A DNA stretch of 64,000 nt from Candidatus Multivorans sp. (GCA_965247095.1 OZ251997.1:512001-576000), one strand, 5' to 3'; numbered from the stretch's first letter, positions 3,480 to 38,051 are shown. Notes: generated by a model not told the origin, from the letters alone. A program made the numbers and translations.

Positions 3480-4901
<1,422 letters not shown>

Positions 4902-4909
4902 GAGTATTC

Positions 4910-15600: not shown

Positions 15601-16059
15601 CGCGACGACCTCCTCTCGCGGCGTCCGCTGCCAGCAGCGACGGCCCTTGCCCGAATCGTCGACTGCGTCAGTGACCTCGTAGTCTCCCCAGCGCACGGTG
15701 ATCCGAAGCGTCGTGTCCGCAGCCAGGAAGCTCAGCCCGATCGAAGACGGAAAGAACGCCTTCTTCGCTGCCTTTCGGTCCTCGGTGGATTCCTCGGCGA
15801 GGCCGGCTCGCTCTGGGACCTCGTCGAGGTCGTCGTCGTCCTCGTCGGCGCCCGCGTCTAGCTCGGGCGGCGTGTCGGACGGAATCAGGAAGCCGGTGAG
15901 GTACCAGTTCGATGGCGATTCGTAGATCGGCAAGCGCTCGCGGGCGAGTTCGTGGCCGGCGCCGGGGCCGACGAGGTCGACTTTGAGGGCGTCGACGAGG
16001 TCCTGGCGCACGTCCAGAGAGCTTGTCGCCGCCGGAACGGCGGCGCCGGCTTCGGTCAT
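12658..16059 (-). CDS. drmA: DISARM SF2 helicase DrmA
   Basis: WRAFQLAF, FPTGGGKTEAY, RYTLRLLTLDQ, QDELH, ATNMISVGLDI, YIQATSRVGR, SLRDVE; stop overlaps drmB start (TGATG). Confidence 0.92.
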   Translation of the reverse strand: MTEAGAAVPAATSSLDVRQDLVDALKVDLVGPGAGHELARERLPIYESPSNWYLTGFLIPSDTPPELDAGADEDDDDLDEVPERAGLAEESTEDRKAAKKAFFPSSIGLSFLAADTTLRITVRWGDYEVTDAVDDSGKGRRCWQRTPREEVVAVELVAGEGATLHDVPASGGLQLHVERRLVTGISTIPPGARSVAVFLVNNRQPAASLDEAETTYAFQAEIEVWSDRPFLPRPDPRPALGDDWDEQVAALHYAGAPRYATGHNVSAQWNADDDGGCRLVRTAWIPQAEVEKTETFEPEGVDLSMDRLGELATGGEAERALQPLLAAYREWIGERRAEPAAFDMDHRETAEELLRRAEFAASRMERGIAALCRDEQALDAFRVANRAIAGALRRRNPSGFEDEGPRWRAFQLAFILLNLAPLADPDDRHREVVDLLFFPTGGGKTEAYLGLAAFAIVLRRLRHPEAGGRAGAGVSVIMRYTLRLLTLDQLARAAGLICALELERDRAPERYGEWPFEIGLWVGKAATPNVLGRKGDANSASARAKTNRYKKKPKYEPSPIPLEDCPWCGTKFEPDSFSLEPNADEPRNLRVVCANWECDFAGDRALPIVAVDEPLYRRLPCFLIATVDKFAALPWEARSGALLGNADRFDEHGFYGAAEPGRGRPMPSPLPPPDLIVQDELHLIAGPLGSMTGLYETAIEALSLHRSSGRAARPKIVASTATARQAQDQIRALFGRSMTQVFPPPGPSRRDSFFAQVKPPTERPARLYVGIASPGRNAKVTMRRLLLPLMAAAEKAYVDAGGRANKTNPADPYMTVLAYFNSLRELGGARRIVEEEVQNTLRGYGARLRLGQERRYFRDRKASFDPLELTSRVSTAAVARARRRLGLAFHEGDRVHYALATNMISVGLDIQRLGLMVVMGQPKTNAEYIQATSRVGRDDARPGLVITLLNVHKPRDRSHYERFRHYHETFYRWVEAGSVTPFAARALDRGMAGAFVALARHADPALTPTRGVERLSEVRAMLERRLIETFSDRLRSQPLADEEDLAERLRSVQNRVGDLLDSWQRVVDSYREVGTEVKYQQYERQGGKPLLREMLDTEFESAHHRKFRVNRSLRDVEPQVNLYIQDPVGGGSR

Positions 16060-16062
16060 GCG

Positions 16063-16653
16063 CTATGTCCCTCGTGATTCCCGAAGCAGCGAGGTCACGT
16101 CGCGCCACAGTTTGTCGAAGGATGGTGCGGTTCGTGCCGCGTCCAGGTCGAAGGCGGCCGTGAACTTGGGCTGATGACGTGTGGGGTGGTAGGTCGCGCC
16201 GCGCAGCACGTTCTGGCTAAGCCATCCCTTGGCGTCCTTGATCGATTCCGGATTCGGGGGCGGCTTCGCTTCGACGCCATGCTTCTCCGCGATCGAGGAG
16301 GTGGCGGCAAGAAACCAGGCCTCGTACTCGGTCTTGGCCAGTACGGCGCGGATGGGGCGATCCGCTCGCGCGAGTCTGGCGCGCCGAAGCAACTCGATGC
16401 CGAGCTCCGCCGGACAGTCGTTGTCCGCATCCAGCAGGATCAGGATGGCGCCGTTGGGACCGGCCTGTCTGGCAGCGAACTCAACGTAGCGTTCCAGCTC
16501 TCCAGGCTTCACTATGCGTTGACGCTTCACTCGAATCGGCCGGTGAATCCGCATCAAAGAGTGGGGCGAGACGTTTTCCGCGACCCGCCGGAGCAGGATG
16601 GGCATGGCCTTGACTTCGCCGTGGCCCTCGACAATGGAAGCGATCTGGAGCAC
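16063..16653 (-). CDS. DUF4276-family TOPRIM-like protein
   Basis: IVEGHGE...ILLDAD, EYEAWFLA, PESIKDAK, PSFDKL; 3 nt from upstream ATPase and 3 nt from drmA. Confidence 0.75.
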   Translation of the reverse strand: MLQIASIVEGHGEVKAMPILLRRVAENVSPHSLMRIHRPIRVKRQRIVKPGELERYVEFAARQAGPNGAILILLDADNDCPAELGIELLRRARLARADRPIRAVLAKTEYEAWFLAATSSIAEKHGVEAKPPPNPESIKDAKGWLSQNVLRGATYHPTRHQPKFTAAFDLDAARTAPSFDKLWRDVTSLLRESRGT

Positions 16654-16656
16654 GGC

Positions 16657-17868
16657 TCAGGGCTCGGTGCCGAACAGCCTGATCTGCCCGGGCTTCGGGC
16701 TCGACATGGTCGGATCTGGATCGATCTGGTCCATTCTCAGTAGCTCGCCGGCTGTGAACAGCTTGTCCTTAAGCACTGAGCGCCCGGCCTCGTCCAAGGG
16801 GCCGATACGGGTCTCCCCGTGTGCGGCGCGAACCGCGATGATCGAATCGGCCGGGATCTCGTCGTCGTCGAGAAGGTCGGGGCTGTGGCTGGTCACGAGA
16901 ATCTGAATGTGCTCGGCGGCATCGCGAAGACTGTCGATGAGAACCCCGGCAGCCGCGGGATGGAGCGCCAATTCCGGTTCCTCGATCCCCACAAGCCCCG
17001 GCATGGCGCGTCCGTTGCCGGCGCCCTGGAAGACCGCCACCAGGATGCCCAAGGCCCGGAGCGTGCCGTCCGACATGTTGCTTGCCTCGAACTTCCAGGG
17101 GTGCTTCGCGCCACGGACTTCCTGGCGGAACTCGAGGGTCTCTCTGGAACCTGCCATCTTGCGCCCAACGCCGGTGATTCCCGGTACGACGGTCCCCAGG
17201 TAGTCCTGGATTCGCCGCTTGGACTCGGGTGACCGTGCCGTGAGATTGGCCAGCACGCTCGCGATATTGCTGCCGTCCCGATTCAGGAGTTCGCCGGGGT
17301 CTGGCGGCTGAGGTTGCCGGATCTCCTGCGGGTTCAGACTGTAGAAGCCGATGGTGGACAGCGCCTCGTAGACGCGGCGGAAGGACTCGTGGCCAGACAC
17401 GTTGACCAGGTACAGCCGGTCCGACGCAGCGAGGGGGCCGATTAGCAGGGTGCTCTTCCTGACCTGACCCTTCTCCACGTTGTAGTAGTCGGAATCCCCG
17501 CCGTTGCGAGGCACCACCAGGCACTCTTCGCGCTGGACTTCGTATCCTCCCGGCCTTCTTGCAGCCACCGTGAATGCGTAGTGCCCGTGGGATTCCTCCA
17601 GATCGAGCTCTACGCGAATCCCGAAGTGCGTCGGATGGCCGCCAGACCTCCGTCGCACGTCGTTGATTCCACCGCGGTCGCGCAATGCGTGGTCGATCGA
17701 GTACCGAAGCGAGTCCCGTAGAAAGCAGAGAGCATCGAGGAAATTGCTCTTCCCCGAGCCGTTCGGCCCGAGAAGGAAGCACAGGTTCGCCGGCGACACG
17801 TCGCACGCGGCGATGCTCTTGTAGTTGCGCAGCGCAACCCGGGTCAGCAGGCGGCGGTCGGCGGTCAC
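16657..17868 (-). CDS. ABC/SMC-like ATPase (AAA_21 type)
   Basis: LRNYKSI, GPNGSGKSN (Walker A), MSDGT (signature), IEEPE (Walker B), LVTSHSP (H-loop); GTG start at 17868 inferred. Confidence 0.85.
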   Translation of the reverse strand: MTADRRLLTRVALRNYKSIAACDVSPANLCFLLGPNGSGKSNFLDALCFLRDSLRYSIDHALRDRGGINDVRRRSGGHPTHFGIRVELDLEESHGHYAFTVAARRPGGYEVQREECLVVPRNGGDSDYYNVEKGQVRKSTLLIGPLAASDRLYLVNVSGHESFRRVYEALSTIGFYSLNPQEIRQPQPPDPGELLNRDGSNIASVLANLTARSPESKRRIQDYLGTVVPGITGVGRKMAGSRETLEFRQEVRGAKHPWKFEASNMSDGTLRALGILVAVFQGAGNGRAMPGLVGIEEPELALHPAAAGVLIDSLRDAAEHIQILVTSHSPDLLDDDEIPADSIIAVRAAHGETRIGPLDEAGRSVLKDKLFTAGELLRMDQIDPDPTMSSPKPGQIRLFGTEP

Positions 17869-18119
17869 GCTGTCTCGCCCGCGTTGCGCCGTGGGCTCCG
17901 CCGCCGTGGCGCTCCGGCGCTTGAGCCTTGATTGGCGGCGGTCCATTGGACTGGGCGCTCCGGTCGTCGCTCGGAACTGCTGAGGACGCGCCCGCTCATG
18001 CGGGGAGTCTAGTCGTAGCGAGTGTCGGGTCGTAGGGTCGTCGGCTTGATTTCCGCTCTGTTTGCGCTTACTCTCGGGCTCCGGCCCGGGTGACGACCTA
18101 CGCAGCCTGACGAAGACCA

Positions 18120-18845
18120 ATGTCCGACAACAGCACGATCGAGTGGACCGATGCCACCTGGAACCCGGTCCGCGGCTGCACCAAGGTCAGTTCGGGTTGT
18201 GCCCACTGCTACGCGGAGAGGTTCTCGGAACGCTTCCGCGGCGTTCGGAACCACCCCTTCGAGCAGGGGTTCGACCTTCGGCGGGTCCCGGAGAAGCTCG
18301 ACCAACCCCGCCGTTGGCGCCGGCCACGGCGCGTGTTCGTCAACTCCATGAGCGACCTCTTCCACCCGCAGGTCCCCGAGTCGTACATCGCCGACGTGGG
18401 ACACGTGATGGGCGAGGTCCGTAGGCACACCTACCAGGTCCTCACCAAACGGCACGAGCGAATGGAGGATCTCCTCTCCGGCCCCCTCGCCTGGATGGGC
18501 GAACTTCCCAACGTGTGGTTCGGCGTGAGCGTCGAGAATCGCCGCCAGGGCCTGCCGCGGCTCGAAGCCCTGCGGCGAACTCCCGCCGCGGTCCGCTTCG
18601 CCTCCGTCGAGCCGCTGCTCGAGGACCTGGGCGACTTCGACCTGACCGGCATCGACTGGGTCATCGTGGGTGGCGAGAGCGGGCCAGGAGCGCGACCGAT
18701 GGAGGAAGCGTGGGTGGTCAACGTCCTTCGCCAATGCCGGCGAGACGGCGTGCCCTTCTTCTTCAAGCAGTGGGGCGGCGTGCACAAGCACCGGAACGGG
18801 CGGTTGCTCGGGGGGAGGACGTACGACGAGTCTCCGGTGAACTGA
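18120..18845 (+). CDS. DUF5131 (phage Gp37/Gp68-like) three-Cys protein
   Basis: IEWTDATWNPVRGCTKVSSGCAHCYAE, FVNSMSDLFH, LTKR, WVIVGGESG, FFFKQWGG. Confidence 0.9.
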   Translation: MSDNSTIEWTDATWNPVRGCTKVSSGCAHCYAERFSERFRGVRNHPFEQGFDLRRVPEKLDQPRRWRRPRRVFVNSMSDLFHPQVPESYIADVGHVMGEVRRHTYQVLTKRHERMEDLLSGPLAWMGELPNVWFGVSVENRRQGLPRLEALRRTPAAVRFASVEPLLEDLGDFDLTGIDWVIVGGESGPGARPMEEAWVVNVLRQCRRDGVPFFFKQWGGVHKHRNGRLLGGRTYDESPVN

Positions 18846-19093: not shown

Positions 19094-21033
19094 CCGAAGT
19101 TCTGGTGCCCAAGTCGTGAAACTCCTGCAATGACGGTGTTTTTTTGGAAATGGGTGTGTTGTGTACTGGGTACGGTTGGTCAAGGTCGGAGGTTGAGGAG
19201 GCTGAATGCCTCGGCCTGGAGGGGTGTTGGTCTGGCCAGGACATCCGCGGTGGCGTTCTCCTGGCCCTGCATTCGGACGCGATTTCGGGTCAGGGTGGCG
19301 AGGTCGGCGATCAGGGTCTGGAAGCTGTGGACGGGTAGTCCTTGCGGTGTGCGCTTGCCGCTCGCCTTGGGGCGGGCTGCGGGGGACCGGCGAGCCGGCT
19401 GTACGGGCGAGGAGCGTTCGTCCCTTGGGTCGTCGTCGTCGAAGAGCAAGGGAGCGAGAAGGCGTCGCATGTGCCACTCGACGTAGTAGGCGAGCATGCA
19501 CAGAAAGACGTGGGCTCGCACTCTGTCGGCCAGGCGATGGTGGACGGGCCGGACCTTGAGGTCGACGCTCTTGTAGCTGCGGAAGGCGCGCTCGACGCGG
19601 CTGAGGCTCTTGTAGGCCCGGACCGCCTCCGGCGCCGGGAGGTCGGCCTCGGCCACGTTGGTGCGGATGACGTAGAAGCCGTCGAGGGCGGCCTCTTCGG
19701 CGATCCGCGTCTGATTGCGGCAGTAGCGGAAGCCGTCTTCGTCGATCTCGGTGTCGAAGTGCTTGCCGACCTTGTGGGCGCGCAGGGCGCGGTCGGCGCG
19801 GGCGGCGATCTTGTCCTTGCCCCGCAGGGGGCGCTGTGGGCGCCTTGTCGCTTCGGCGACGGCCTCCAGCTTGCGCTCGGTGGCGTCGAGAAGCTCCTGG
19901 CGCTTGCGGCGCCGCCTGGTTGCCAGCAGCGGGTTCCGGCACACGATCAGCCGCTCTGCGGGGTACAGCTCGGGGGCGCTCAGTTCGGCCATGTCCCGTT
20001 CGTCGAAGATCGACAGTTGCAGGTGGCCCTGCTGCACCAGGGTGCGGATCGCGGGCGCGCGCAGGGCGGTGATCCACGACAGGCCGCCGGGTTCGAGGTC
20101 TTCGCGGATGCGGGCGCTGGTGAGCAGGCCCCGATCGCCGACCATGACCACGCGGTCGAGCGAGAAGCGCTCGTTGAGCTTCTGCACTTGGGCACTCAGC
20201 GTGCCGGGATCGGCGGTGTTGCCTTCGAAGACCTCGACCGCGACCGGGCATCCGTCCCGGTTGCAGAGCAGCGCGAAGACGATCTGGGGCTTGCCCGGCT
20301 TGCCGTCCTTGGAGTACCCGCGCCGGGCGAGGGCGCATTTCGCGCCCTCGAAGTAGACCGAGGTCACGTCGCACAAGACGAGGCAACCGTCTTTGAGGTG
20401 CTGTTCGGCCAGCCGTCGCTCGATGCGTTGCTGCCGTTTGAGCAGCCAATCCATGGCGGAGTAGAGCTCGTCGGCGCCCGCCTCCTCGACTCCGAGTTCC
20501 TCGCCGAGGGTGTGGGACGAGGTCTCGCTTGAGAGTCCGCGTGCGGTGGCGAGCTTGGAGCGAGGTTCGAGGATGCGGGCGATGATCATGGCGAGCGCGA
20601 GCGCCCGTTCGCGCGAGGGTCGGCGGTCGAGGAGTGTCTCGAGGCCGCGTCGTCGCGCGGCGCCGAGCGTGGCGGCGACATGACCGTGGGGCCTGGAGCG
20701 CAGGATTTCGAAGGCGGAGTCGAGGGAGGGCAGTGCGACGCCGCCCTTGAGGAGAGTGCGCAGGCCCTCGACGAGATGATCGGGCCACTTGGAGAGGTTG
20801 GCGAGTGTCCGTTTGCAGACTCTTCCGTGGTCTCGGTAGGACTCGCGCAGGAGCACGGCGGGTGGCGAGTTGCGGTTGGGTACGCGTTCGATGTACATGG
20901 CTTCTATTGTAGCTTCATCATGTCTCCATATCTACCACACTTGACCATACTACATGGGTACATTATGCGGCCCGAAAACCGTAAAACCCTAGGCGCGGCA
21001 ACGATCCGCGACACTCAGGCCCCAGAACTTCGG
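19094..21033 (-). mobile_element. IS1634-family insertion sequence
   Basis: 21-bp terminal IRs CCGAAGTTCTGGTGCCCAAGT (19094-19114) and ACTCAGGCCCCAGAACTTCGG (21013-21033), 18/21 matching; flanks CCTAGC / CTTAGC (imperfect DR). Confidence 0.85.
19180..20898 (-). CDS. IS1634-family DDE transposase
   Basis: MYIERVPNRNSPPAVLLRESYR N-terminus; CDVTSVYFEG, RGYSKD, VGDRG, VERAFR, RVRAHVFLCMLAYY. Confidence 0.92.
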   Translation of the reverse strand: MYIERVPNRNSPPAVLLRESYRDHGRVCKRTLANLSKWPDHLVEGLRTLLKGGVALPSLDSAFEILRSRPHGHVAATLGAARRRGLETLLDRRPSRERALALAMIIARILEPRSKLATARGLSSETSSHTLGEELGVEEAGADELYSAMDWLLKRQQRIERRLAEQHLKDGCLVLCDVTSVYFEGAKCALARRGYSKDGKPGKPQIVFALLCNRDGCPVAVEVFEGNTADPGTLSAQVQKLNERFSLDRVVMVGDRGLLTSARIREDLEPGGLSWITALRAPAIRTLVQQGHLQLSIFDERDMAELSAPELYPAERLIVCRNPLLATRRRRKRQELLDATERKLEAVAEATRRPQRPLRGKDKIAARADRALRAHKVGKHFDTEIDEDGFRYCRNQTRIAEEAALDGFYVIRTNVAEADLPAPEAVRAYKSLSRVERAFRSYKSVDLKVRPVHHRLADRVRAHVFLCMLAYYVEWHMRRLLAPLLFDDDDPRDERSSPVQPARRSPAARPKASGKRTPQGLPVHSFQTLIADLATLTRNRVRMQGQENATADVLARPTPLQAEAFSLLNLRP

Positions 21034-21034
21034 C

Positions 21035-21490
21035 TTAGCCTGACGCTGCCGGGGCGTCCGCGTGCAACGACAGCCGCTCTCGGGCTTGGAGAATGGCCAG
21101 GAGCGGCGTGCGAGGCCGCAGGTGGGCGTAGGACTGGGGAGGGCGAAAGTTGCACTCGGCGTTCTGAAGCGGAAGTGGGCTTCGCAGTCTCCGCACGTCC
21201 ACAAGTGCGATGGCCGAGATGGAGTCCCGGCCGCCGACGTAGGCGTTGAACTCGGGCCGGTCGATACCGACTCTGTCTCCCGATCGCCGCCAGACTTCTT
21301 CCGGGCTGGCACAGCGCACCGCTTGCACGGTGGCCGTGGCGACGATCTGGTGCCAAGGGCTCGTCGCGTAGAACCAGATTCTGGTGCCGGGAGGCAGGCG
21401 AACGTTGCGCCTTCGGATCTCTACGCTCTTCGTTCCCGAGAGCAGCATCTTCACGTACTTGGGTTTGATCGCCATCAGGACGTCGCTCAC
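21035..21490 (-). CDS. ASCH domain protein
   Basis: LMAIKPKYVKMLLSGTKSVEIRR, WFYATSP, RPPQSY. Confidence 0.85.
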   Translation of the reverse strand: MSDVLMAIKPKYVKMLLSGTKSVEIRRRNVRLPPGTRIWFYATSPWHQIVATATVQAVRCASPEEVWRRSGDRVGIDRPEFNAYVGGRDSISAIALVDVRRLRSPLPLQNAECNFRPPQSYAHLRPRTPLLAILQARERLSLHADAPAASG

Positions 21491-21591
21491 TTCTCGGGTC
21501 CCTCTTAGGCCGTGGGTGACGACTAGCTGCCGTGCTGGTGGCGATCTGTTGGGTTCCAGGTCGTTTCTTCGGGTTGCAACGCGCGTGGACT

Positions 21592-23853
21592 TCAAAGCCC
21601 ACGGATCGCCTTCCAGAACTCGCGTAGTGCCGGGTTCGTTGTCCCGCCCTCGCCCTCGGCGATGATCCTGGGCGGGTAGGCGAGTCTTCGGAGCTTGCCG
21701 TCGGGCCCACTCTTCTGTGTCTTCTTGTCTTCCAGCAGTCCGTGGTCGCGCAGGAGGTTTTCGAGAGCCCACCAGCACGGGTTGGTAGAGATGCCGCGCT
21801 GCTTGAGCATGCCCTCGGAGAGGTAGTACATTCTCTCGGAAACATGAAGCAGCTTATGCAGAAGTTCGATCGTTTCCTCTGCCTGCTCGCTGTACTGGGG
21901 TTGCGTCGGCGGCTCTTCGGCGGGTATCGGCATTCCAATCTTCTCGCAGATGGCGGCCATCCTGGCGGGGTCGTACTCCGTCCGGCCGTCGCGGTGCGCA
22001 AGTCCATAGAGGTCGACTCCGATCTCGAGGCGAAGCCCGCTAAGCCTGGTGGTCGAAACGTCGACCCTTAGTCCGGTGAATGTGGATTTTGTCGAGGCCT
22101 GGAAGGACCAGTCGGCGCCCCGAAAGTCCGTGTCCACGAAGTCGCAGTTCTCGACGTGCACGTTCCGCTGGACGGTATCGCGGAAGTTCGAGCCCGTGAA
22201 TGACGCCTCGAACAAGTGAGGATCAGGTGTCCGCTCGTGCTTGCACAGGAGCGCCGCGTACAGCGTACCGGCGTTCTCTCGATTCGTCTCGCGGGTCGGA
22301 ACCGGTACACGGCGGGCGGAAAGAGCGTCCAGGACCGAGGCAAGGAAGTCGGGCCCCTCTTCTTCGACATGCTCGGCGAACTCGGCTGCGACCGTGGGAC
22401 TCACCTGGGAACGCCCGAGAAGGCCGGCGACGTCTTCCTGACGGGCGAGTCGCTCGGCGAGGAAGCGGGCGACGAAGAAGGCGTAGTAGTACTCGTGGGA
22501 GAAGGCGAGCATGCGCGGACCGTTCGTGTGGGAGGATCCGTTCTGCGTCGCCAGGAAGGCGTAGGACGAGGCGCGGGAGATGAAGGCGCGAAGGTCGGGC
22601 CCGGTCATTCCAACCTCGTCGGCAAAGAGCTCGGCGATGGTGTCCAAAGAAGCCTTGTCGAGTTCTCGCCTTTCCTGCCACCACATCTCTTCGGCCAGCA
22701 TGCGCAGGAATTGCCAGTGGTTCTCCTCGGTGAGGATGGGCTGGTCCTTGGCATTGAGGAACTTGCCCACCTCGCGCCGGACGAAGCTGTCGATGATGCT
22801 GCGAATGGGCCGGTCGCCGTCGGCGAAGCCGGCGGACTCGCGAGCGGTTTCCACGGCGGCAGCCAGGAAGAACGGAGTGGAGAAGAGCTGTGCGCTCCCG
22901 TTCCCGGAGAAGGTGCTCTCGAGCTCCTCCAGAGCCTGGTCGGGTGACGCGGCTCCGAGCGTCTGGTATTGGTCGTCCTTCTTCAGATAGGTGCACATCT
23001 CCCGTTTCGTCCACGGCTGGAGCTCTACGGGAACGATTGCGAAGCTGGCATCGCTCGACGTGAACCGGTCGGCGCTCGCTCGGATCCGGCCGAAGTCGAA
23101 GTAGGTGGAACGTGCGGAAGCGATGGTTGCCCCGCGGCCGTCCAGGCGTGCGAGGAATTGAGTCAGTGCGTCGATCGCCTCGCCTCCTCCTCCCGCACCC
23201 AGGAGTTCGTCGAAGCCGTCGATGATCGGAACGATGAGCCGGTGCTTCGTGAGAGTGGCCAGTGCCCGGTACGTGAAGCGGGCGTTCAGGTCCTGAAGGA
23301 GGAGTGCCACAGCGTCGTCGAGACGCGCGAGATAGCGGGCCTGGGCATCGATGTAGAGGTAGAGGAAATCCGCGTTGTGATTCAGATACGCGTCGGCCTG
23401 ACGGTGTGCCAGGTGTCGAAGAACCACCGTCTTTCCGGCTCCGGCGGCACCGCGCAAGAACACGACGCGAGTTGCGCCGTGGGGGACGTCCGCGAGGAGA
23501 CTCTCTATGACATTCCTGGCCGAACCTTCGCCTTCGTCGGAATCCGCCGTCGTGGCCCTTGGTTCGATGTATTTGCTGTTCTCGACATCACATGCAAAGA
23601 AGATCGACTCTGCCAGAGCGGTCAGGTTCGCCATCTCCTCGGACGCCAGGAAGGCATGGTAGGCCATTCTTGAACCGTTGAGCTGAACCTCCGGGTACAT
23701 GCCGGAGCTTTGGAGGAACGTCGCTTCGTAACTCGTGCTCTGCCGGGTCCAGATTGCGGTTCCCGGTGGGAGCGCTACGCGAGAGTGCGTGTCCGCGAAC
23801 GATGCAAGATCGGCTCGAATCTCGGCCAGCAGTCGTTCACTGAGCGTTGTCAT
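21592..23853 (-). CDS. NACHT/STAND NTPase with pentapeptide-like repeats and unrecognised N- and C-terminal domains
   Basis: LRGAAGAGKT (Walker A), IIDGFDE (Walker B), ASAR (sensor), TPFFL, FSHEYYYAFF (WHD); ASFTGSNFRD..CDFVDTDFRGADW repeats. Confidence 0.82.
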   Translation of the reverse strand: MTTLSERLLAEIRADLASFADTHSRVALPPGTAIWTRQSTSYEATFLQSSGMYPEVQLNGSRMAYHAFLASEEMANLTALAESIFFACDVENSKYIEPRATTADSDEGEGSARNVIESLLADVPHGATRVVFLRGAAGAGKTVVLRHLAHRQADAYLNHNADFLYLYIDAQARYLARLDDAVALLLQDLNARFTYRALATLTKHRLIVPIIDGFDELLGAGGGGEAIDALTQFLARLDGRGATIASARSTYFDFGRIRASADRFTSSDASFAIVPVELQPWTKREMCTYLKKDDQYQTLGAASPDQALEELESTFSGNGSAQLFSTPFFLAAAVETARESAGFADGDRPIRSIIDSFVRREVGKFLNAKDQPILTEENHWQFLRMLAEEMWWQERRELDKASLDTIAELFADEVGMTGPDLRAFISRASSYAFLATQNGSSHTNGPRMLAFSHEYYYAFFVARFLAERLARQEDVAGLLGRSQVSPTVAAEFAEHVEEEGPDFLASVLDALSARRVPVPTRETNRENAGTLYAALLCKHERTPDPHLFEASFTGSNFRDTVQRNVHVENCDFVDTDFRGADWSFQASTKSTFTGLRVDVSTTRLSGLRLEIGVDLYGLAHRDGRTEYDPARMAAICEKIGMPIPAEEPPTQPQYSEQAEETIELLHKLLHVSERMYYLSEGMLKQRGISTNPCWWALENLLRDHGLLEDKKTQKSGPDGKLRRLAYPPRIIAEGEGGTTNPALREFWKAIRGL

Positions 23854-24587
23854 GGCGGGCCACCCAAGGCCAGGTACTCAACAGACATTTGAGAAAGAAG
23901 GTCGGCGTAGGAGCTCGGATACGTGCGGTCTATCGTAACGAGAAGCAGTCGGCTGTGGTCGGCAGCTCCCGCCATCAGGCCGGGCAAGATGTCGTCGTCG
24001 TTGGAGACGACGGCTACCCAGTCGGCCGCATGGTGGCGGGCAAAGTGTATCGTGTCGGCGACGATAGCCGTGTCCACGAGTTTCTGACGCTCCGCGACGA
24101 TGGCCTCGCGCGACGTGACCCCGCAGTCCGGGCGCATGGGGCATCGGTTGCGCTGCCAGTGTCTGAGATCGTCGAGAGGGCAATCGTCAGGATGGCGACA
24201 GTTGCTTGGGCGGTCGACCCTGAGAGCGGGAAGACCGGACCAGAGCCTGAGGGTGTGGCTCAGGTCATGGTCCGGCAGGGCCATGAGTGAATCGGCCATG
24301 CGGACGAAGACGCGGGAGGGTGGTCCTCCGGTCGGGTAGTAGCGTCGCGCGATGGCGCCTAACGCCTGCCTCGCCTCGGTGTGGTCGTTGGTTCTCTCGT
24401 CGTGCCAGCCGCCGTAAAGGCGGATGCGTAGGGACTCTGGCGGAGGCTGCAGTCTGCGGATCTCGCGTAGTAGCAGCGAGATGATTCCATCGAGAGCTTC
24501 GCTGTGGTCCCGGAACTTGGGACGACGGCCTCTCGGCAGGGCGGCGACGTTGAAATAGTCGACGAGGGCGTGGGCGGTGCGTGGCAT
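23850..24587 (-). CDS. NYN/PIN-like ribonuclease with four-Cys insertion
   Basis: ALVDYFN, RLYGGW, QKLVDTAIVAD, VVSNDDDILP (NYN/LabA acidic motifs); C-x5-C-x12-C-x5-C insert; stop overlaps NACHT start (ATGA). Start may be 24587 or 24638. Confidence 0.75.
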   Translation of the reverse strand: MPRTAHALVDYFNVAALPRGRRPKFRDHSEALDGIISLLLREIRRLQPPPESLRIRLYGGWHDERTNDHTEARQALGAIARRYYPTGGPPSRVFVRMADSLMALPDHDLSHTLRLWSGLPALRVDRPSNCRHPDDCPLDDLRHWQRNRCPMRPDCGVTSREAIVAERQKLVDTAIVADTIHFARHHAADWVAVVSNDDDILPGLMAGAADHSRLLLVTIDRTYPSSYADLLSQMSVEYLALGGPP

Positions 24588-24848
24588 GGGGGTTCGGTGG
24601 CGGGCGTCGGCCCGCGTGATGGAGGTGACGTGCGGCAAGGGGGTGAGCCGGCGCAGTCGGCAAGGGCTGGATCCGCTCGCTGCCGACTCGCTTGGTCAGG
24701 TCAGCCGAGGGACGTGGACGGTACCACGCCACGGGGCCCGTGATGCCGGCTTCGCAAGACGTGCCAGCCCAAGCGTGCCCGGCGATGGTCACTCCAGCCG
24801 CATCGGCAGCAGCCTGGTAGCGGGCGACTGCGGCTTCGGTGGGAGTGG

Positions 24849-25607
24849 TCAGGAGCCGTACGGAAACTCCGAGTTGGGAAAATGCTGCGCCCACAACGAG
24901 GCCGCTAATCCACGCCAGAATCGTAGGACGGCGTCGGACCAGTCGGCCAGGTCCGTTTCGGTTACATAGAGTTCGCCGCCGCCCAACGGTGCGAAGGCTA
25001 GGTGGGATGCTTGCATAGCCGCTGCTCGCCGCTGCTCGTCGACGGACGCCCCTTCTGCGGTGCTCAGCTCAAACACGAAGAGATCCGGCCTTAGCGCTGC
25101 GAGTCCGAGGGCCGATTTGCCAGAGCCGTGCTTGATGGTGTTCGCAGCGAGTCTGAGTTCCTTGAGCTTCGCTGCACCCGGCAGAGCAGTTGGAACCACT
25201 TTGGAGCCCAGCAGGCTGTAGTTCAAGGCCTTCCAGCTATACTCCGTTCCCGTTCGTGCCTCGCAGGTCTGATAGAAGAGGCTCTTCTGCTGCTGCTCGA
25301 ACAGGTGCTGCAGGCCGACTGCGAGCACGTTCAATACGCTTTGGCGGATAGCGAACATCGTTTCACCGTATTCGTTGCCATAGTCCGTCGCCCGCTCAGC
25401 CAGGTCGCCGAGGTCACCGTCGTGGTCAGGCCCGGCCGGCTGGGCGCAAAGGCGCTCGAACTCTGCGTCTGTGGCAGCCTCCGCTTCCTGCTCAAGGTTC
25501 TCGAAGACAGGGGGTATTTTCCTCAGAGCGGCTGCGCGGTAGGCCTGGACCGGAGGGACGTAGAACATGGGAATGTGGTGAGCCAGCCAGGCCGTGTCCA
25601 TGAACAT
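24849..25607 (-). CDS. hypothetical helical protein, HEPN-like
   Basis: HLFEQQ plus ELRLAANTIKHG resemble the HEPN E...RxxxNxxKH layout; lower GC than flanks. Confidence 0.5.
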   Translation of the reverse strand: MFMDTAWLAHHIPMFYVPPVQAYRAAALRKIPPVFENLEQEAEAATDAEFERLCAQPAGPDHDGDLGDLAERATDYGNEYGETMFAIRQSVLNVLAVGLQHLFEQQQKSLFYQTCEARTGTEYSWKALNYSLLGSKVVPTALPGAAKLKELRLAANTIKHGSGKSALGLAALRPDLFVFELSTAEGASVDEQRRAAAMQASHLAFAPLGGGELYVTETDLADWSDAVLRFWRGLAASLWAQHFPNSEFPYGS

Positions 25608-25669
25608 AGAGCGAGTTCCTATACGTGGGTTCGTCGGCGTCCGGAATGTTCACGGCGGCGGCGAACGGG

Positions 25670-28600
25670 TCATGCCTGGTTGAGCTGCCCTTCCGCCTCG
25701 GCTCGCCGGGCGTTGAGCTCCAGGAGCCGGGCTAGGACTTCGTCACGGACTTCGTCGGGCCAGCGGTAGCGGTAGGGCTTCTTCTTGTTGCCCCAGGTGT
25801 CTTCGTCGATCTCGTGGTCGAGGATGAACTTGCAGGCGGTCGGGATGTCGGTCCAGCCGTAGGCGTCGAGGACGGCGCGGTCCATGGCGGCGTGGAGGTC
25901 GCGGAGCTTCTGGATGGCGGGGCTGGTTTGGCCTCGGTCGTGGAAGCGGTTGTAGGTCTTGGTCAGGCCCTCGTCGTTCTCGATCATCAGGGCGGCGCGG
26001 TAGTCGTAGTAGGCCTTGCCGGCGGCTTCGAGGGCGGCGTGGGTCTCCCAAGCTTGGGGGAAGGGGAAGGTTTCGAAGCAGTCGGAGGGCGTGTACCGCA
26101 AGTCGTCTTTCATTGAAGAGCCGAAGAACCGGGCCCAGAGTTCGTGGGGGCGGGCCTGGAGGGCGCAGAGCGCGGCGTTGGTCGGGAGGGGAAAGATGAT
26201 GAGAGTCTCCGCGTAGACCATTCCGTTGGGTAGGTAAGTAGAGGCTGCGTGCTGACCGACTCGGGCGATCGCGAGGACGCGGTCCAGGTCGGCGATGGCG
26301 GCGTACAGAGCGGGTTGGCGGTCGCCGTAGTACCACCATCGGTTGCGGCGCGAGGCTCGCTTCGACTTGGAGCGTTCTGGCTTGACCCTCTCCTCGACGA
26401 TCGCGAGCAAGTCCGGCCAGTCCGCCGCGACCGGACTCGGATAGTCGACCGGCACGACGCCTCTTCGTAGCCATTCGCGGCGCATCTCGCTCGAGGCCCC
26501 GTTCCACCGTTCCGCGCCGTCTTCGCGGCGTAGCGGATAGTCCCGGAAGTTGATGACGTACCGATGATGAGCGTGAGTCGGACTAGCGTTGACCTCAGCG
26601 CCGCCGATGTACGGGAAGATCGCCTCCCGGTTGTGCGGATCGTCCTCGATCAGCCGTTCCATCTCGGCCAGAGGCGTCGCGACCCCTTTCTTGTCCGTGT
26701 CGTCGAACGTGAAGCCCATGCCGAGGACGTAGCTGCCGACGAAGCTCTTGCCGTCGTTCTCTGCGAGCCGCTCCGGGTCCTCGTGGCCGCCACTGTGGAA
26801 CAGGAAGGCGGTGATGGTCGGCTTCGGGACGCCGTCAAGCAGCCTCGCGCTGGTCCAAGGGCCACGGTGGATATGGAGAACACTGACGATGACCGCCGCG
26901 AGTCCGGGCCACTCGACACGCCGCCGCGCCCGGTAGATCGCTCCGCCGTGCTCGCAGATGTAGCGCAGGCCCGTGGCGCGGGTGTCCCCCTGGGCGATCG
27001 TGTTGGTGGCGATCAGGCCGAAGGCGCCGTTCTCACGGAGCAGATTGAAGGCGCGCCGGAAGAAGTGGGCGACCAGATCGGCGTTGCCGTGGCTCTTTTC
27101 GTGAACTTGCTGGAGCCAGTCCTTGTAGCCAGATACGTTGGCGTTGCCGATCGTGTTCTTGCCCGCGAACGGCGGGTTGCCGACGATCCCGTCAAAGCCG
27201 GGATTCTCACGCTCTCCGGGAAGGAACACTTCCGGGAACTCGATCTTCCAGTGGAACGGCGCCAGCGGGGGATTCGCCTTCCGCAGGTCGTCCAGCCAAC
27301 CGGCGTAGGCGTGGGCGCCTGGAGGGGTTGCCTCGTCTCGCGGAGGCGGCTGCAAGGCTTGGGCGAACTGCCGGCGCAACTCCTCCCGCTCCTTCGGTTT
27401 CTTGCCCTCGAAGAACGCGGCCACAGCCAGATCTCCGTGCGTCTTCACCCGCGCCAGATCATGCTCCGCTTCGTCGAGCCGATCCCGCAGTTCCTTATCG
27501 GGCGTCTCCTCGCCGGCGTCCTGGATCTCACGCCGCAGTCGGAGCGCCTTCTGGACCTGATCGCGGATCCACGTCGTTTCGATGCCAGCCTGGAAGCGCT
27601 TCTGGCTGCCCTCCCAGTGGAAGGCCTGAATCTGCTCCAGGGTGAGCCCTACGAGCGAGTCGCCGTGGCGGAAGGCATGGTCGAGGAAGGTCAACGGGTG
27701 GTCCCTTGCCAGGGTGGCGAGCCACAGGGACAGCTTCGCCAGGTCGACCGCGACCGGATTCCGGTCGACGCCGTAGAGGCAGTTGCGGGCAATGAGACGG
27801 CGGGCGTGGACGGTCTCGTCGCTGTCGGGCGGGATGTTCGGCGTGGCGTCGTAGTAGCGCCACGACTCGACCAGGACGTCGCCGAGTTGGCGGCAGGCTT
27901 CGACCAGGAAGGCGCCGGAGCCCATGGCCGGGTCGCAGATGCAGAGGTCGAGGATCTGTTCCGGGCGGGGCACGGGAGGCGTCGGCGACTCGCCGGATGC
28001 GGGGCGGGACGCCCGCGTGCCATCCGTGCGCCCGATGACGGGCGCTCGGAGTGGTTCGCGGGTGGCGCGGATCGCGCCACCCGGGTTCCCAGGGGTGACG
28101 CTTCCCATGTGGGCAGCCTCTCTTCGCAACCGATCCAGGATCGATTCCAGGGTGTCGCGGACGATCGGGCCGGTGAGCGACCTGGGCGTGTAGTGAGAGC
28201 CGGAACGCCGGCGTTCTTCGCTGGGCTGGAGGATCAGGTCGTCGCGCCGCGCCAGATCGGGCGTGGCGTCGCGGTCGATGACCGAGTCGAGGGCGGCGTG
28301 GAGTTCGTCGAGCGTGGCCGCGTCGTGGACCGCCTTCGCGGCTTTCCCGGTCAGGTTGCGGTCGGTCCGTTGCTTGGTCCATCGCACTCGGCTGCCGGCG
28401 GGCTCGGCGAGCAGTTCCTCCAGGTTCACGGTCGCTGGCGCGCCGTGCTTCTTGGCCGCCTTGATCGCCGCGGACCGCCCCCCGGCGCGTTCGAGCTGGA
28501 AGCCCATCATCGTCTCGTAGACGGCGCCGATCTGCTCGACGTCCAGGGCGCGGTAGGAGAGGCGCTCGCCGTCGAGGACGAGGAGCTTCTCCAGCGCACG

Positions 28601-29827
28601 GAAGATGGTGCCGTCGGAGACGCGGGGCGCCTGTACGCGTTCGTGGCTCTGAGCCGCGCCGACGAGGGGGCGGCCCTCCAGGAACTTGTAGCGGTCCGGG
28701 TCGAAGAGGACGCCGTGCCGGGGCGGGAGCCGCAGCCGTGCCGCTTCGGCGCCGTTGTGGACCATCCGAAACAGGGTCAGCAGTCCTGCCCAGGTGCCGT
28801 AGCGCTGGTTCATCGTGTCGGGGTGGAGCGCGGCGTCGGCCCGCAGCCGTTCGTAGAGGCCGGCAAGGGAGTAGTGGCGTTCGAAGGTCCGGTTGTCGGA
28901 CAGCAGGCCGCGCTCTTCCGCGTAGAGCAGGAACACCAGCCGCAGGACCACCGTGAGCAGGCCGCGGTAGACGTCGTTGCGGTCTTCCCGGAGCTGTTGG
29001 TTCAGCAGGTCGCCGCGCGAGGCGTCGTGGGCTGCCTGGAAGCCGCGCAGCAGCTCGTAGAGGGCGTGCAGCACCTGTCTCGCGAGCTTCTCGCTGACCT
29101 CGTTCTGGTACTTGCGGCTGTCGGCGAGCAGGGCCGCCAAGCGCTGTTCCCGCGGCAGGGCCAGCAGCCGGCGCTCGTTCAGCAGCAGTCGAAGCGCGGT
29201 GCAGATCGGCCGGCCCGCCACCAACAGCATGTCGGCAACATTGAAGTCCATCCAGCCCGAGCTCTCGCCGTGCGGCGCCGAGACGAGGCGCAGGGCGCGG
29301 CCGTTGAAGAGCAGGCCGGCGGGGACTCTCTTCGCCCGGAGCAGTCGTTCCAGCCGGCTGTGGGGCGAGGCTTCGAGCCGGCCGGCGCCGGCGGCGACCC
29401 TGTCGAAGTCCTGGCCGGGCTCAAGGGCCTGCACCAGCAGTTGCCAAGCCGGGCCTTCCTCGCTCGGTTCTAGTTCGCGGACCGCGAAGTCGGGGCGCAG
29501 CGTCTCGCCGTAGTCGGGCAGGTGAAGGCTCAGATCCTCCGGCATCGGGGCGGCGCTGCCGCCGGCGTAGCCCCTGGGCGAGAAGTTCCAGCCGAGCACG
29601 GTGCGGGCGAACGGCTCGAAATCGGGCAGGAGGGCTGAGGGCTCGTCGCCCGATCCGGACCGCCGGCATTCAACGGCCGCCTGCAGGCGGCGCTGGCCCT
29701 CCTGGTCGCTGCGTTGCAGCACCGCGCCGGCCTTGTCCAGCGCCGGCGCCGAGACGACGAGACCGGTCGGCTGCACGAAGCCGAGCCACTCCAGGTGGGC
29801 GAGCGTGTTCGCGTTCGGTTGGGCCAT
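25670..29827 (-). CDS. drmMI: DISARM class I N6-adenine methyltransferase DrmMI
   Basis: HLEWLGFVQPTGLVVS N-terminus, VEQIGAVYE, GSHYTP, DPAMGSGAFL, VGNPPF, C-terminal LRYTPSDCFETFPFP, GLTKTYNRFH; lies between drmD and drmA. Confidence 0.88.
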   Translation of the reverse strand: MAQPNANTLAHLEWLGFVQPTGLVVSAPALDKAGAVLQRSDQEGQRRLQAAVECRRSGSGDEPSALLPDFEPFARTVLGWNFSPRGYAGGSAAPMPEDLSLHLPDYGETLRPDFAVRELEPSEEGPAWQLLVQALEPGQDFDRVAAGAGRLEASPHSRLERLLRAKRVPAGLLFNGRALRLVSAPHGESSGWMDFNVADMLLVAGRPICTALRLLLNERRLLALPREQRLAALLADSRKYQNEVSEKLARQVLHALYELLRGFQAAHDASRGDLLNQQLREDRNDVYRGLLTVVLRLVFLLYAEERGLLSDNRTFERHYSLAGLYERLRADAALHPDTMNQRYGTWAGLLTLFRMVHNGAEAARLRLPPRHGVLFDPDRYKFLEGRPLVGAAQSHERVQAPRVSDGTIFRALEKLLVLDGERLSYRALDVEQIGAVYETMMGFQLERAGGRSAAIKAAKKHGAPATVNLEELLAEPAGSRVRWTKQRTDRNLTGKAAKAVHDAATLDELHAALDSVIDRDATPDLARRDDLILQPSEERRRSGSHYTPRSLTGPIVRDTLESILDRLRREAAHMGSVTPGNPGGAIRATREPLRAPVIGRTDGTRASRPASGESPTPPVPRPEQILDLCICDPAMGSGAFLVEACRQLGDVLVESWRYYDATPNIPPDSDETVHARRLIARNCLYGVDRNPVAVDLAKLSLWLATLARDHPLTFLDHAFRHGDSLVGLTLEQIQAFHWEGSQKRFQAGIETTWIRDQVQKALRLRREIQDAGEETPDKELRDRLDEAEHDLARVKTHGDLAVAAFFEGKKPKEREELRRQFAQALQPPPRDEATPPGAHAYAGWLDDLRKANPPLAPFHWKIEFPEVFLPGERENPGFDGIVGNPPFAGKNTIGNANVSGYKDWLQQVHEKSHGNADLVAHFFRRAFNLLRENGAFGLIATNTIAQGDTRATGLRYICEHGGAIYRARRRVEWPGLAAVIVSVLHIHRGPWTSARLLDGVPKPTITAFLFHSGGHEDPERLAENDGKSFVGSYVLGMGFTFDDTDKKGVATPLAEMERLIEDDPHNREAIFPYIGGAEVNASPTHAHHRYVINFRDYPLRREDGAERWNGASSEMRREWLRRGVVPVDYPSPVAADWPDLLAIVEERVKPERSKSKRASRRNRWWYYGDRQPALYAAIADLDRVLAIARVGQHAASTYLPNGMVYAETLIIFPLPTNAALCALQARPHELWARFFGSSMKDDLRYTPSDCFETFPFPQAWETHAALEAAGKAYYDYRAALMIENDEGLTKTYNRFHDRGQTSPAIQKLRDLHAAMDRAVLDAYGWTDIPTACKFILDHEIDEDTWGNKKKPYRYRWPDEVRDEVLARLLELNARRAEAEGQLNQA
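27993..28094 (-). repeat. GAAC-hairpin repeat family, full composite (head+A+B+C) inside drmMI
   Basis: CCCTGGGAAC CCGGGTGGCGCG-ATC-CGCGCCACCCG CGAACCAC TCCGAGCGCCCG-TCAT-CGGGCGCACGGA TGGCAC GCGGGC-GTCCC-GCCCCGC ATCCGG. Confidence 0.9.
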
Positions 29828-34099: not shown

Positions 34100-35125
34100 C
34101 TACCGGCGGCCTGCAGCCGTTTCGACCTGTTCGTGCAGCGTCCGCAAGGCGTTGTACGAGGCGGCTCGCAGGTTGAGCGGTCCGCGCACGGCTTCCCAGC
34201 GGCGCACGGTTGCCGCGGTGACCCTGAGCGCGGCGGCGAACTCGGCGACCGTCAGGCCGCTACGCCGGCGGAGCCTGGAGACGCGGGCGCCGGTGGGGCG
34301 GAAGGGTGGCGCGACACCCGGGGCCTTCTTCGTGGCGCCCTTTCGCCGGCTCGGGGGCCGGGAAGCGCCACCGCGTTTTCGAGCGTTGCGCGCCGCCTTC
34401 TTCCGCGGTCTGGAGCGGGGATCCCGCGCCTCGTCCGTGTCCAGATCGATGCCGAAGATCCCCGACAGGTCGCCTTCCGCCAGGGAATCCGCACCCGCCG
34501 CGCCGGCCGGCAGCGCCAGGTCGGCGTCAATCAGCTCCGATTCGTCGACCTTTCGCAGCAGGAAGAGGAGTTCGGGGCTGTCGTCGAGCCGGTTGCCGAC
34601 GCCGTACAGGACCGAAGCCACGTGCTTGCACATGCCGGCCCAGTCCGGGCAGTCGCAGTCGAACTCGATCTGGCTCGGAGTCGGAAACAGGCCGCGGTTG
34701 CGATCCGTGACGACAGCCATCACCTGGTCGGAGAGTCGTCCCTGGAGCAACTCGATGACCGATCCGATCTGTCCGGTGCATCTGGCCTTGATGGACTTCC
34801 AGACAGCGGGCTTGAGCTTCTGGATGCGAATGGCGACGTGGTAGAGCCTCGTGCCGACGACCAGTGCGTCGACGCGGCCGGCCCGGATCGCCAAGTCGCA
34901 GACCGCGCCGTGGCGCGCGTAGCTGCGGCCGCGCGGCAACCGGTTGCGGTAGTCGGAGAAGGACTCCAGGTGCTTGCACCAGCGCTTGCCCCAGAAGCTC
35001 CGGGCAATCAGGTTCCCCGTGATTTCGACCGGCTGCACCTTCTTGCCCTGCTTGCGGAGACTGGCGACCTTCCGCGCGGCCCTGGCTCGTCGCGCGGCGA
35101 CTGGAACGTAGGTCGGAAACCTCAT
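34100..35125 (-). CDS. SWIM zinc-finger protein with C-terminal XRE-like HTH
   Basis: NRLPRGRSYAR, CDCPDWAGMCKH (SWIM), LFLLR; C-terminal SGLTVAEFAAALRVTAATVRRWE. Confidence 0.85.
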   Translation of the reverse strand: MRFPTYVPVAARRARAARKVASLRKQGKKVQPVEITGNLIARSFWGKRWCKHLESFSDYRNRLPRGRSYARHGAVCDLAIRAGRVDALVVGTRLYHVAIRIQKLKPAVWKSIKARCTGQIGSVIELLQGRLSDQVMAVVTDRNRGLFPTPSQIEFDCDCPDWAGMCKHVASVLYGVGNRLDDSPELLFLLRKVDESELIDADLALPAGAAGADSLAEGDLSGIFGIDLDTDEARDPRSRPRKKAARNARKRGGASRPPSRRKGATKKAPGVAPPFRPTGARVSRLRRRSGLTVAEFAAALRVTAATVRRWEAVRGPLNLRAASYNALRTLHEQVETAAGRR

Positions 35126-37833: not shown

Positions 37834-38051
37834 GCCGAGCCCGCTTGCCGGCACGATGCGCGCGAGCGAGGCGACGGCTGGGCGGATCTTCGCCACGGGC
37901 TGTCCGAGGGGAAGATCGTGGAGTGCCGGTCGATCGGCGAGATCGGCCCGGTGGGCGGTCCGTCGAGGGTGTGGAGGAGACGCTCCAACCTCATCGATTC
38001 GTTGACGCCAGACGACCGAGTGGCTGCAATATAGGCGATTTCGCCGTCTCC

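Follow-up and report, generated by a model that had tools for sequence, protein, structure and literature searches.

A conserved NYN–NACHT gene pair embedded in a DISARM locus of Candidatus Multivorans sp., a probable two-gene STAND defence candidate

The window analysed here, a stretch of 64,000 nucleotides (nt) from Candidatus Multivorans sp. (GCA_965247095.1 OZ251997.1:512001-576000), carries a gene for a NYN-fold nuclease that is directly followed by a gene for a NACHT protein with pentapeptide repeats. According to the open reading frame (ORF) calls, both genes and an ASCH-domain gene downstream of them lie on the minus strand between drmMI and drmA of a DISARM locus. A first-pass annotation, made from the sequence alone, had proposed a split sensor/effector system in which the NACHT protein activates the separate nuclease, with the ASCH protein as an optional partner. 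The minus-strand junction of the two genes, CCGCCATGACAACG, bears out the overlap reported there, since the stop codon TGA of the NYN gene and the start codon ATG of the NACHT gene share the letters ATGA. The longest ORF of the NYN gene starts with TTG and extends to 24638; counted from the ATG, the protein comprises 245 amino acids (aa). The two genes and their parts are, in positions of the window:

23850–24587, minus strand: gene for the NYN-fold nuclease in its long form, first of the two genes, 245 aa when counted from the ATG
24108–24236, minus strand: four-Cys insert in the NYN fold, residues ~118–160, with C130, C136, C149 and C155
21592–23853, minus strand: NACHT/pentapeptide-repeat gene, downstream gene of the pair, 753 aa
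23554–23853, minus strand: N-terminal domain of the NACHT protein, residues ~1–100, a helix, four strands and further helices
22414–23511, minus strand: NACHT nucleoside triphosphatase (NTPase) module with helical and winged-helix parts, residues ~115–480, boundaries approximate
21994–22281, minus strand: pentapeptide-repeat region, residues ~525–620, proposed sensor surface
21595–21993, minus strand: C-terminal region of the NACHT protein, residues ~621–753, with conserved G640, G716, F746 and W747

Homologues of the NACHT protein with a length of about 750 aa numbered 113 in a word-indexed search, and 141 relatives were confirmed in species-representative genomes. The best 80 of these 141, each taken with 6-kb flanks, served as homologue loci and were searched with an iterative NYN profile over all six-frame ORFs. 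In 63 of the 80 loci, the NACHT gene is directly preceded on the same strand by a NYN-family match; rare pairing, which the first-pass annotation had held would speak against its proposal, was therefore not what was observed. The paired loci span Acidobacteriota, Gemmatimonadota, Pseudomonadota, Myxococcota, Bacteroidota, Spirochaetota, Actinomycetota and other phyla. In 60 of the 63 pairs the two genes are separate ORFs; the distance between the NYN stop and a NACHT start codon ranges from -8 to +36 nt in 59 of them, and the NYN ORF overlaps the NACHT start in 28. The reverse search gave the same picture: all eight NYN matches obtained at E <= 1e-10 in 400 other Acidobacteriota genomes are directly followed by a NACHT-family match on the same strand, and the NYN family was thus not found on its own in these genomes. 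All-against-all clustering of the flanking ORFs revealed no other gene family common to more than about nine loci, and the remaining large clusters consist of antisense shadows of the NACHT gene.

The NYN protein displays the motifs VD (D10), QKLVD (168–172) and VVSNDDD (193–199), so that the acidic motifs read from the sequence at first pass (VD, QKxVD and SNDDD, the last at 195–199) are present, as are the four Cys. Its match to Pfam NYN (PF01936) amounts to 20.5 bits (E 7.5e-4), just under the cut-off of 24.2 bits; among the 59 family members, 23 match this model at E <= 0.01, the best with an E-value of 2.5e-8. The AlphaFold (AF2) model, with a pLDDT (predicted local distance difference test) score of 91.9, folds into a NYN/PIN-like three-layer alpha/beta structure. 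In a VIA wide structural search the top match is the NYN domain of MARF1 (5yaa_A), with Z 12.4, 144 of 150 residues aligned and a root-mean-square deviation of 3.2, followed by the LabA-like protein VPA0982 (2qip_A, Z 10.5) and by PIN nucleases of the FEN/ExoIX type (Z ~8). Foldseek gave zero matches for the model against the PDB at E <= 0.001, and the NYN profile matched PDB sequences at chance level only (E 0.046). Ten residues are invariant in all 59 members (D10, N13, Y58, G60, W61, K169, D172, D197, D199 and P202) and D178 is kept in 58, which outlines a conserved acidic cluster, predicted to bind metal. As judged from the model and the family alignment, the protein belongs to a divergent NYN family with an apparently intact acidic site, because a MARF1-like fold, a weak or partial Pfam match and invariant Asp residues come together in it.

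Within this fold, the insert at residues ~118–160 is modelled with a pLDDT of 86–89, and none of its four Cys varies among the 29 long-form members. Probably it forms a Zn-binding knuckle. The whole insert is missing from the other 30 of the 59 members, the short form. Hence the putative knuckle is a feature of a clade and not a requirement of the module, and the Zn-containing nuclease of the first-pass annotation would fit the protein of the window but only 29 of the 59 family members.

A search of 1.84 billion representative proteins with the NYN profile retrieved 982 at E <= 1e-10, of which 194 reach E <= 1e-30. The lengths of the top 150 all fall within 143–284 aa, so these are stand-alone proteins, and a search for NYN fusions, limited to longer proteins, yielded a single find, P0014, of 901 aa. 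NYN and NACHT matches fall within one ORF at three of the homologue loci (L011, 4876–8280; L070, 5683–7821; L078, 4681–7479). All of these single-ORF forms, P0014 included, may represent real fusions, but a deletion or an assembly indel could also account for them. Since L011, L070 and L078 stem from metagenome assemblies, with possible indels or degraded copies, they are not taken as firm Rosetta-stone evidence. Two further loci hold more than one NYN gene: L065 contains two tandem NYN–NACHT pairs (NYN at 2382–2951 and 5410–5958), and L031 combines a short-form pair (NYN at 5415–5990) with a second, long-form NYN gene about 7 kb away on the other strand (13157–13870, minus).

The central part of the NACHT protein matches Pfam NACHT (PF05729) over residues 129–219 with 31.4 bits against a cut-off of 26.7, and AAA_16 over residues 116–234. 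Walker A reads GAAGAGKT (135–142) and Walker B IIDGFDEL, with D212, D215 and E216. Across 102 homologues G138, G140, K141, D212, D215, E216, R248 and H453 are invariant, in agreement with the intact Walker motifs assigned at first pass; a Pfam match above the gathering score together with both Walker motifs places the protein among the STAND NTPases. As judged from the sequence, an FSHE motif, in which F451 and H453 are invariant and E454 is near-invariant, lies at the distance from the P-loop that is to be expected. H453 is presumably the ADP-contacting histidine of the winged-helix domain. In the accessible portion of the bNACHT study (bioRxiv 10.1101/2022.07.19.500537), bNACHT25 and bNACHT16 were hyperactivated by a substitution of the conserved winged-helix-domain histidine.

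Towards the C-terminus, the profile of the 102 homologues matches solved pentapeptide-repeat proteins (MfpA, Qnr and the designed protein beta1) over positions 526–623 with E-values from 1.3e-12 to 1e-10. The family profile thereby points to tandem repeats of the A(D/N)LXX type and a right-handed beta-helix, which substantiates the pentapeptide-like repeats suspected at first pass; the single sequence gives weak Pfam matches at 547–596, all under the cut-offs. For the C-terminal region there was no Pfam match, and an Atlas search of residues 625–753 gave no usable match.

The N-terminal domain is modelled by AF2 with a pLDDT of 83 and contains the near-invariant residues D15, F19, D21 and W35. 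Its ~100 residues have zero Pfam matches, a best VIA Z of 5.4 and no Foldseek match in the PDB at E <= 0.001, while Atlas look-alikes of residues 1–112 score at most 0.82 and belong to mixed families. Because this domain matches nothing convincingly, the NACHT protein is considered to be without a recognisable enzymatic effector of its own, as the first-pass annotation had stated, and the domain is proposed to serve for docking or output. Complex prediction with full-length NACHT and NYN proteins scored 0.00 in two runs without controls and is uninformative on binding either way.

A tree of 76 NACHT sequences was calculated with FastTree with local SH-like supports; left out were L070, L073, L078, L080 and L081, whose matches are shorter than 600 aa, and L001, the window itself. 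It resolves three well-supported groups:

Group 1, 32 sequences: 28 with long-form NYN (~235–245 aa, Cys insert present), three lacking NYN and one with both matches in a single ORF
Group 2, 30 sequences: short-form NYN (~190 aa, no insert), two of them labelled long by ORF length only
Group 3, 14 sequences: without NYN, mostly Solirubrobacterales

Long-form and short-form NYN genes accordingly fall in separate NACHT clades. The tree is incongruent with taxonomy, and in groups 1 and 2 the phyla are mixed, a sign of horizontal spread. Between the NYN and NACHT proteins, pairwise identities correlate with a Pearson coefficient of 0.96 over 51 pairs, and none of 999 Mantel permutations reached the observed value (L011, L027, L033, L061, L062, L065, L068, L070, L073, L078, L080 and L081 were left out). 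At the level of sequence identity the two genes are thereby shown to be inherited together; by itself, such a correlation does not amount to co-evolution. In conclusion, the NYN and NACHT genes constitute a real, conserved and horizontally mobile two-gene module with intact catalytic sites.

In the window the module sits in a defence island. The genes around the pair, from drmD to drmB, are:

30609–34088, minus strand: drmD (PADLOC DrmD, E 9e-304)
25670–29827, minus strand: drmMI, DISARM methyltransferase (PADLOC DrmMI, E 0)
24849–25607, minus strand: gene without known function between drmMI and the NYN gene, 252 aa
21035–21472, minus strand: ASCH-domain gene, 145 aa (Pfam ASCH, E 2.8e-5; PADLOC PDC-M11B, E 2.5e-26)
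19180–20898, minus strand: DDE transposase of an insertion sequence (IS), between the ASCH and DUF5131 genes (Pfam DDE_Tnp_1, E 2e-13)
18120–18845, plus strand: DUF5131 gene (Pfam, E 5.6e-97; PADLOC PDC-M41B and PDC-M30B, ~E 1e-100)
16657–18120, minus strand: HEC-01A, coordinates of the ORF (PADLOC, E 5.8e-158)
16063–16653, minus strand: HEC-01B (PADLOC, E 3.4e-72)
12658–16059, minus strand: drmA, DISARM helicase (PADLOC DrmA, E 1.3e-271)
10826–12658, minus strand: drmB (PADLOC DrmB, E 1e-81)

All four DISARM genes (drmD, drmMI, drmA and drmB) lie on one strand, and drmC was not identified among the ORFs scanned in the window. The DISARM locus (10826–38154) is split between drmMI and drmA by an insert of about 9.6 kb that holds at least four separate cassettes. 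The position of the NYN, NACHT and ASCH genes in this interval was correctly described at first pass, but the interval also holds the 252-aa gene, the transposase, the DUF5131 gene and HEC-01A/B. The latter two form an ATPase/TOPRIM-type candidate pair, another cassette embedded in DISARM, and the DUF5131 gene is the sole plus-strand gene of the block. Beyond drmD lie a helix-turn-helix (HTH) protein (34100–35125) and a DpdE/ZorD-like SNF2 helicase with DUF3670 (35143–38154), and metabolic genes of the ordinary kind start past ~38.2 kb. A scan of 20800–25800 for promoters and terminators gave one promoter-like site near the IS and zero terminators, which is not above shuffled sequences.

The NYN–NACHT pair is therefore one of several cassettes embedded in a DISARM locus of the class-1 type. 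The same position between drmMI and drmA recurs in two further loci. In L002, from a 99%-identical genome, the transposase is missing, which points to a recent IS insertion within the embedded block of the window. In L005, whose NACHT protein is 78% identical, the order is drmMI, 252-aa gene, NYN, NACHT, ~3.4 kb of other DNA and drmA; the pair thus occurs inside DISARM in at least two species of the lineage, with different cargo alongside. In the available part of bioRxiv 10.1101/2024.01.29.577857, which also explains the HEC and PDC names, genes located within DISARM, BREX, RM and Hma loci are reported to be defence systems in many cases.

Distribution of the family is patchy. NYN matches at E <= 1e-10 occur in 9 of 401 Acidobacteriota genomes including that of the window, and in one of eight other genomes of the same genus. 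Among cultured strains, the family is found in Methylorubrum rhodinum DSM 2163 (L057) and a Streptomyces sp. (L081), both with a short-form pair, and in an Embleya sp. For a descriptive tally of neighbours in other genomes, the nearest ORF of 200–900 aa was taken on each side (101 of 110 nearest ORFs, from 340 flanking ORFs at 58 loci; shadow ORFs are possible). Restriction-modification methyltransferases, mad2, integrases, PIN, HipA and DarT-NADAR proteins are among them.

On the evidence of gene order, fold and conserved residues, the pair is probably a candidate for two-gene STAND defence in which the RNase has a gene of its own. In the proposed mechanism the NACHT protein would act as both sensor and switch. 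Its C-terminal half, comprising the pentapeptide beta-helix and the C-terminal region, would recognise an infection cue, whereupon nucleotide exchange in the NACHT module would drive oligomerisation. The ~100-aa N-terminal domain, which lacks enzymatic features, would then contact the separately encoded NYN protein and relay the signal to it. The latter is predicted to be a metal-dependent PIN-like endoribonuclease that would cut cellular and/or phage RNA and so stop the infection, probably by abortive infection, and the four-Cys insert of the long form may be an accessory, probably a Zn knuckle, for contact with substrate or partner. That the pair is a functional two-gene unit is held with much higher confidence than this full anti-phage mechanism of a STAND sensor controlling a NYN RNase, which we favour with moderate confidence.

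As a rule, bacterial NLR-like proteins are portrayed as one polypeptide to which the effector is fused, and the beta-helix of pentapeptide-repeat proteins is a DNA-mimicking fold in Qnr and MfpA. A more far-reaching version of the mechanism would see in the pair a new and widespread class of NLR-like immunity with a non-fused effector, in which the N-terminal domain recruits and activates the NYN protein heterotypically, the short pentapeptide helix baits phage DNA-binding proteins and the clade without NYN, with its Schlafen-like neighbour, reflects exchange of the RNase partner. This version is put forward tentatively, as a possibility we rather doubt.

Comparison with known systems gave no name for the pair. 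PADLOC v2.0.0 holds no family-level model for either protein: the NYN protein of the window has no match at all and the NACHT protein only BrxF at E 0.006. Among the homologues, HEC-09 was matched weakly by 6 of 59 NYN members (best E 0.0027) and Avs2 by one of 19 NACHT members (E 4.6e-4). In this regard, the expectation of the first-pass annotation that the architecture is not a named system was borne out. No paper was found that names a NYN+NACHT or NYN+STAND system, though supplementary tables of the bNACHT and embedded-defence papers might list the clade, and a literature search on PDC-M11 found no paper describing the NYN–NACHT pair. Two assignments were rejected. The NACHT protein has no PADLOC Avs match and is not counted among the Avs (AVAST) proteins; its match to DS-8 (NCBIfam NF053861, DS8_antiphage) is local, covering residues 378–473, and reaches 25.1 bits against a cut-off of 790.

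Closest in architecture are the bNACHT proteins, with which the NACHT protein of the window shares the central NACHT module, intact Walker A and B motifs, presumably the winged-helix-domain histidine, C-terminal repeats as presumed sensor and a location in a defence island. As far as the accessible part of the bNACHT study goes (bioRxiv 10.1101/2022.07.19.500537), these proteins protect against phage through N-terminal effectors, the tested genes are rarely in operons and such operons are poorly conserved, and pentapeptide repeats appear in a figure legend among the bacterial NACHT architectures. Unlike these single genes with their fused N-terminal effectors, at least as that part of the source presents them, the NACHT protein of the window starts with ~100 aa of no known fold, and the nuclease comes from a distinct gene upstream that is strongly conserved.

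Among the AVAST types, some comprise several genes. The pair resembles Avs in coupling a STAND NTPase sensor to a nuclease-type output, but differs in having a NACHT module instead of the Avs-type ATPase, pentapeptide instead of TPR-like repeats and a separately encoded effector. With the MARF1 NYN domain (5yaa) and VPA0982 (2qip) the NYN protein has in common the fold and the pattern of conserved Asp residues. HEC-09 is, in the accessible part of bioRxiv 10.1101/2024.01.29.577857, a MARF1-like NYN protein encoded by a single gene embedded in a defence locus. Both proteins are thus MARF1-like and located inside defence loci; however, the NYN protein of the window belongs to a distinct family with a four-Cys insert in half of its members, has no HTH domain and is obligately paired with NACHT. 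Comparable with the defence cassettes embedded in DISARM, BREX, RM or Hma loci is the position of the pair, between drmMI and drmA on the same strand and beside HEC-01A/B and PDC-M11B-, PDC-M41B- and PDC-M30B-like genes, whereas the two proteins of the pair have no family-level HEC or PDC match in PADLOC v2.0.0.

Several observations weigh against a sensor that controls the NYN protein in phage defence. The 14 NACHT homologues of group 3 form a monophyletic clade without an upstream NYN gene, and a strong NYN match elsewhere was found in none of five genomes of this clade, the sole match having an E-value of 1.1e-4. The N-terminal domain is nevertheless kept in 16 of the 17 NYN-less loci. Since this clade retains the domain, the NACHT protein evidently exists, and perhaps works, without NYN. 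Three further NYN-less loci fall inside the long-form clade: L006 retains a NYN remnant, in L010 the NACHT protein is truncated N-terminally, and L012 has an extended ORF. Of the split sensor/effector coupling proposed at first pass, the conserved two-gene unit with intact active sites stands, but as a whole NACHT clade does without it, NYN is not obligatory for the NACHT family. Moreover, no NACHT relative was found in viral contigs, plasmids gave no tblastn match, and in the above tally many immediate neighbours in other genomes are metabolic or housekeeping enzymes. HEC-09, a different NYN candidate and a single gene, gave no protection in E. coli according to the accessible part of bioRxiv 10.1101/2024.01.29.577857. 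Finally, EAD-coupled NTPase conflict systems likewise join a switch protein to an effector from an adjacent gene, and, in the part of the work of Kaur and colleagues that was available (eLife 2020, PMC7159879), the same adaptor domain is described on the NTPase and on the effector of the adjacent gene. The NACHT N-terminal domain and the NYN protein, in contrast, share no detectable domain (hhalign probability 0.1%). As there is no profile similarity between the two, the coupling is not of the homotypic EAD kind.

The loci without NYN have neighbours of their own. A Schlafen protein with AlbA_2, HATPase_c_4 and wHTH domains adjoins the NACHT start in six loci of the NYN-less clade, its gene being divergent in L045, L052, L053, L058 and L071 (~4510–5925, minus) and joined by an ATGA overlap in L066 (4181–6004); it matches a pAgo-associated model of PADLOC with E 9e-29. 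Similar proteins are encoded downstream of the NYN–NACHT pair in L025, L038 and L059. Directly upstream of the NYN-less NACHT genes of L079 and L074 lie a JAB+ThiF (E1-like) gene (4321–5730) and a GmrSD_N/NsnA-like gene (4138–5130), respectively. The Schlafen-like neighbour could be an effector replacement, or the NACHT protein could work alone.

If it did work alone throughout the family, the NACHT protein would be a complete single-gene defence system or switch with its own N- or C-terminal output, and the NYN protein a dispensable accessory in two of three clades, be it an RNA-processing helper, an independent second toxin or a regulator of NACHT expression. The 14-member clade, which keeps the N-terminal domain and in whose five genomes no strong NYN match was found elsewhere, is what such a protein would leave behind. 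However, the fold of the N-terminal domain does not look catalytic (best Z 5.4), all 59 NYN members keep the catalytic residues unchanged, the NYN gene sits tight against the NACHT start in 59 of 60 pairs, and 8 of 8 independently found NYN members are followed by NACHT. The nuclease-like Schlafen neighbour in six loci of the NYN-less clade fits effector replacement equally well. We regard a self-sufficient NACHT protein as unlikely.

PIN-like RNases are common toxins. Together with the tight translational coupling, in which the small nuclease gene comes first, and the mobile, variable contexts, this would suit a toxin-antitoxin-like addiction module, in which a constitutive NYN RNase toxin is neutralised by the NACHT protein until a trigger arrives or the locus is lost, so that the pair stabilises the island and senses no phage. 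Known antitoxins are, however, far simpler than a STAND NTPase of 753 aa that has an invariant ATPase site and a repeat sensor, and a Pfam scan identified no autoregulatory DNA-binding domain. The pattern of loss also runs in the wrong direction, as NACHT persists without NYN and the presumed toxin never turned up alone in the reverse search, the reverse of usual antitoxin loss. Addiction is accordingly rated as distinctly improbable.

Whether the pair serves immunity at all can be asked in view of the many metabolic genes that flank it elsewhere and of the viral contigs and plasmids, in which no copies were found. It would then control RNA turnover, as a switch for housekeeping or stress, and its place in a genomic island would be accidental. 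Against this stand the very patchy distribution (9 of 401 genomes of the phylum, one of eight other genomes of the genus) and the incongruence between the NACHT tree and taxonomy, the embedding of the pair in DISARM in at least three genomes, and the restriction-modification, mad2, integrase and toxin genes among its neighbours. A housekeeping role is therefore very improbable in our estimate.

The ASCH gene starts 119 nt behind the NACHT stop on the same strand, as the first-pass annotation had noted in round numbers; the adjacency stands, the partnership does not. Next to a NACHT gene, ASCH occurs in one of 80 loci, that of the 99%-identical genome (L002), and L005, which has the same DISARM-embedded pair, is without it. 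The ASCH protein matches PDC-M11B over residues 1–120 and a PADLOC scan of 19 proteins of the window revealed no PDC-M11A partner. Among the 80 loci, one further ASCH homologue exists, in L009 (336–4259, together with the gene behind it), ~4.5 kb upstream of the NYN start; it is 50% identical to that of the window and directly precedes a type IIG restriction-methyltransferase gene, an arrangement suggesting that the ASCH family is linked with modification-dependent systems and not with the NACHT pair. The 252-aa gene is found upstream of NYN only in L002, L004 and L005 and has no match in Pfam, PADLOC or NCBIfam; in NCBIfam, neither a 196-aa protein nor the NYN protein was matched either. Both the ASCH and the 252-aa gene are outside the conserved module, and ASCH is to be dropped from the model. 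A system in which NYN, NACHT and ASCH act together, the last as RNA-binding or modifying partner, has in its favour the 119-nt spacing in the window and L002, but is already contradicted by this synteny and by the match of ASCH to a different candidate system, and is hardly credible.

With the STAND sensor and its separately encoded NYN RNase as the preferred reading, the module is of a kind already known, NLR-like defence with a nuclease output, and not a new category; the pair is one among hundreds of embedded candidates, and the logic of STAND sensor and nuclease is familiar. The family is not rare, with 141 NACHT relatives and 194 NYN clusters at E <= 1e-30, and its presence in cultured strains makes it testable. 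What makes the module interesting is the effector encoded in trans, along with an N-terminal domain without a family. If the proposed mechanism is true, the pair would offer a clean system for how STAND oligomerisation reaches an effector in trans, and would bring a new adaptor domain as well as an addition to the catalogue of DISARM-embedded defence cassettes.

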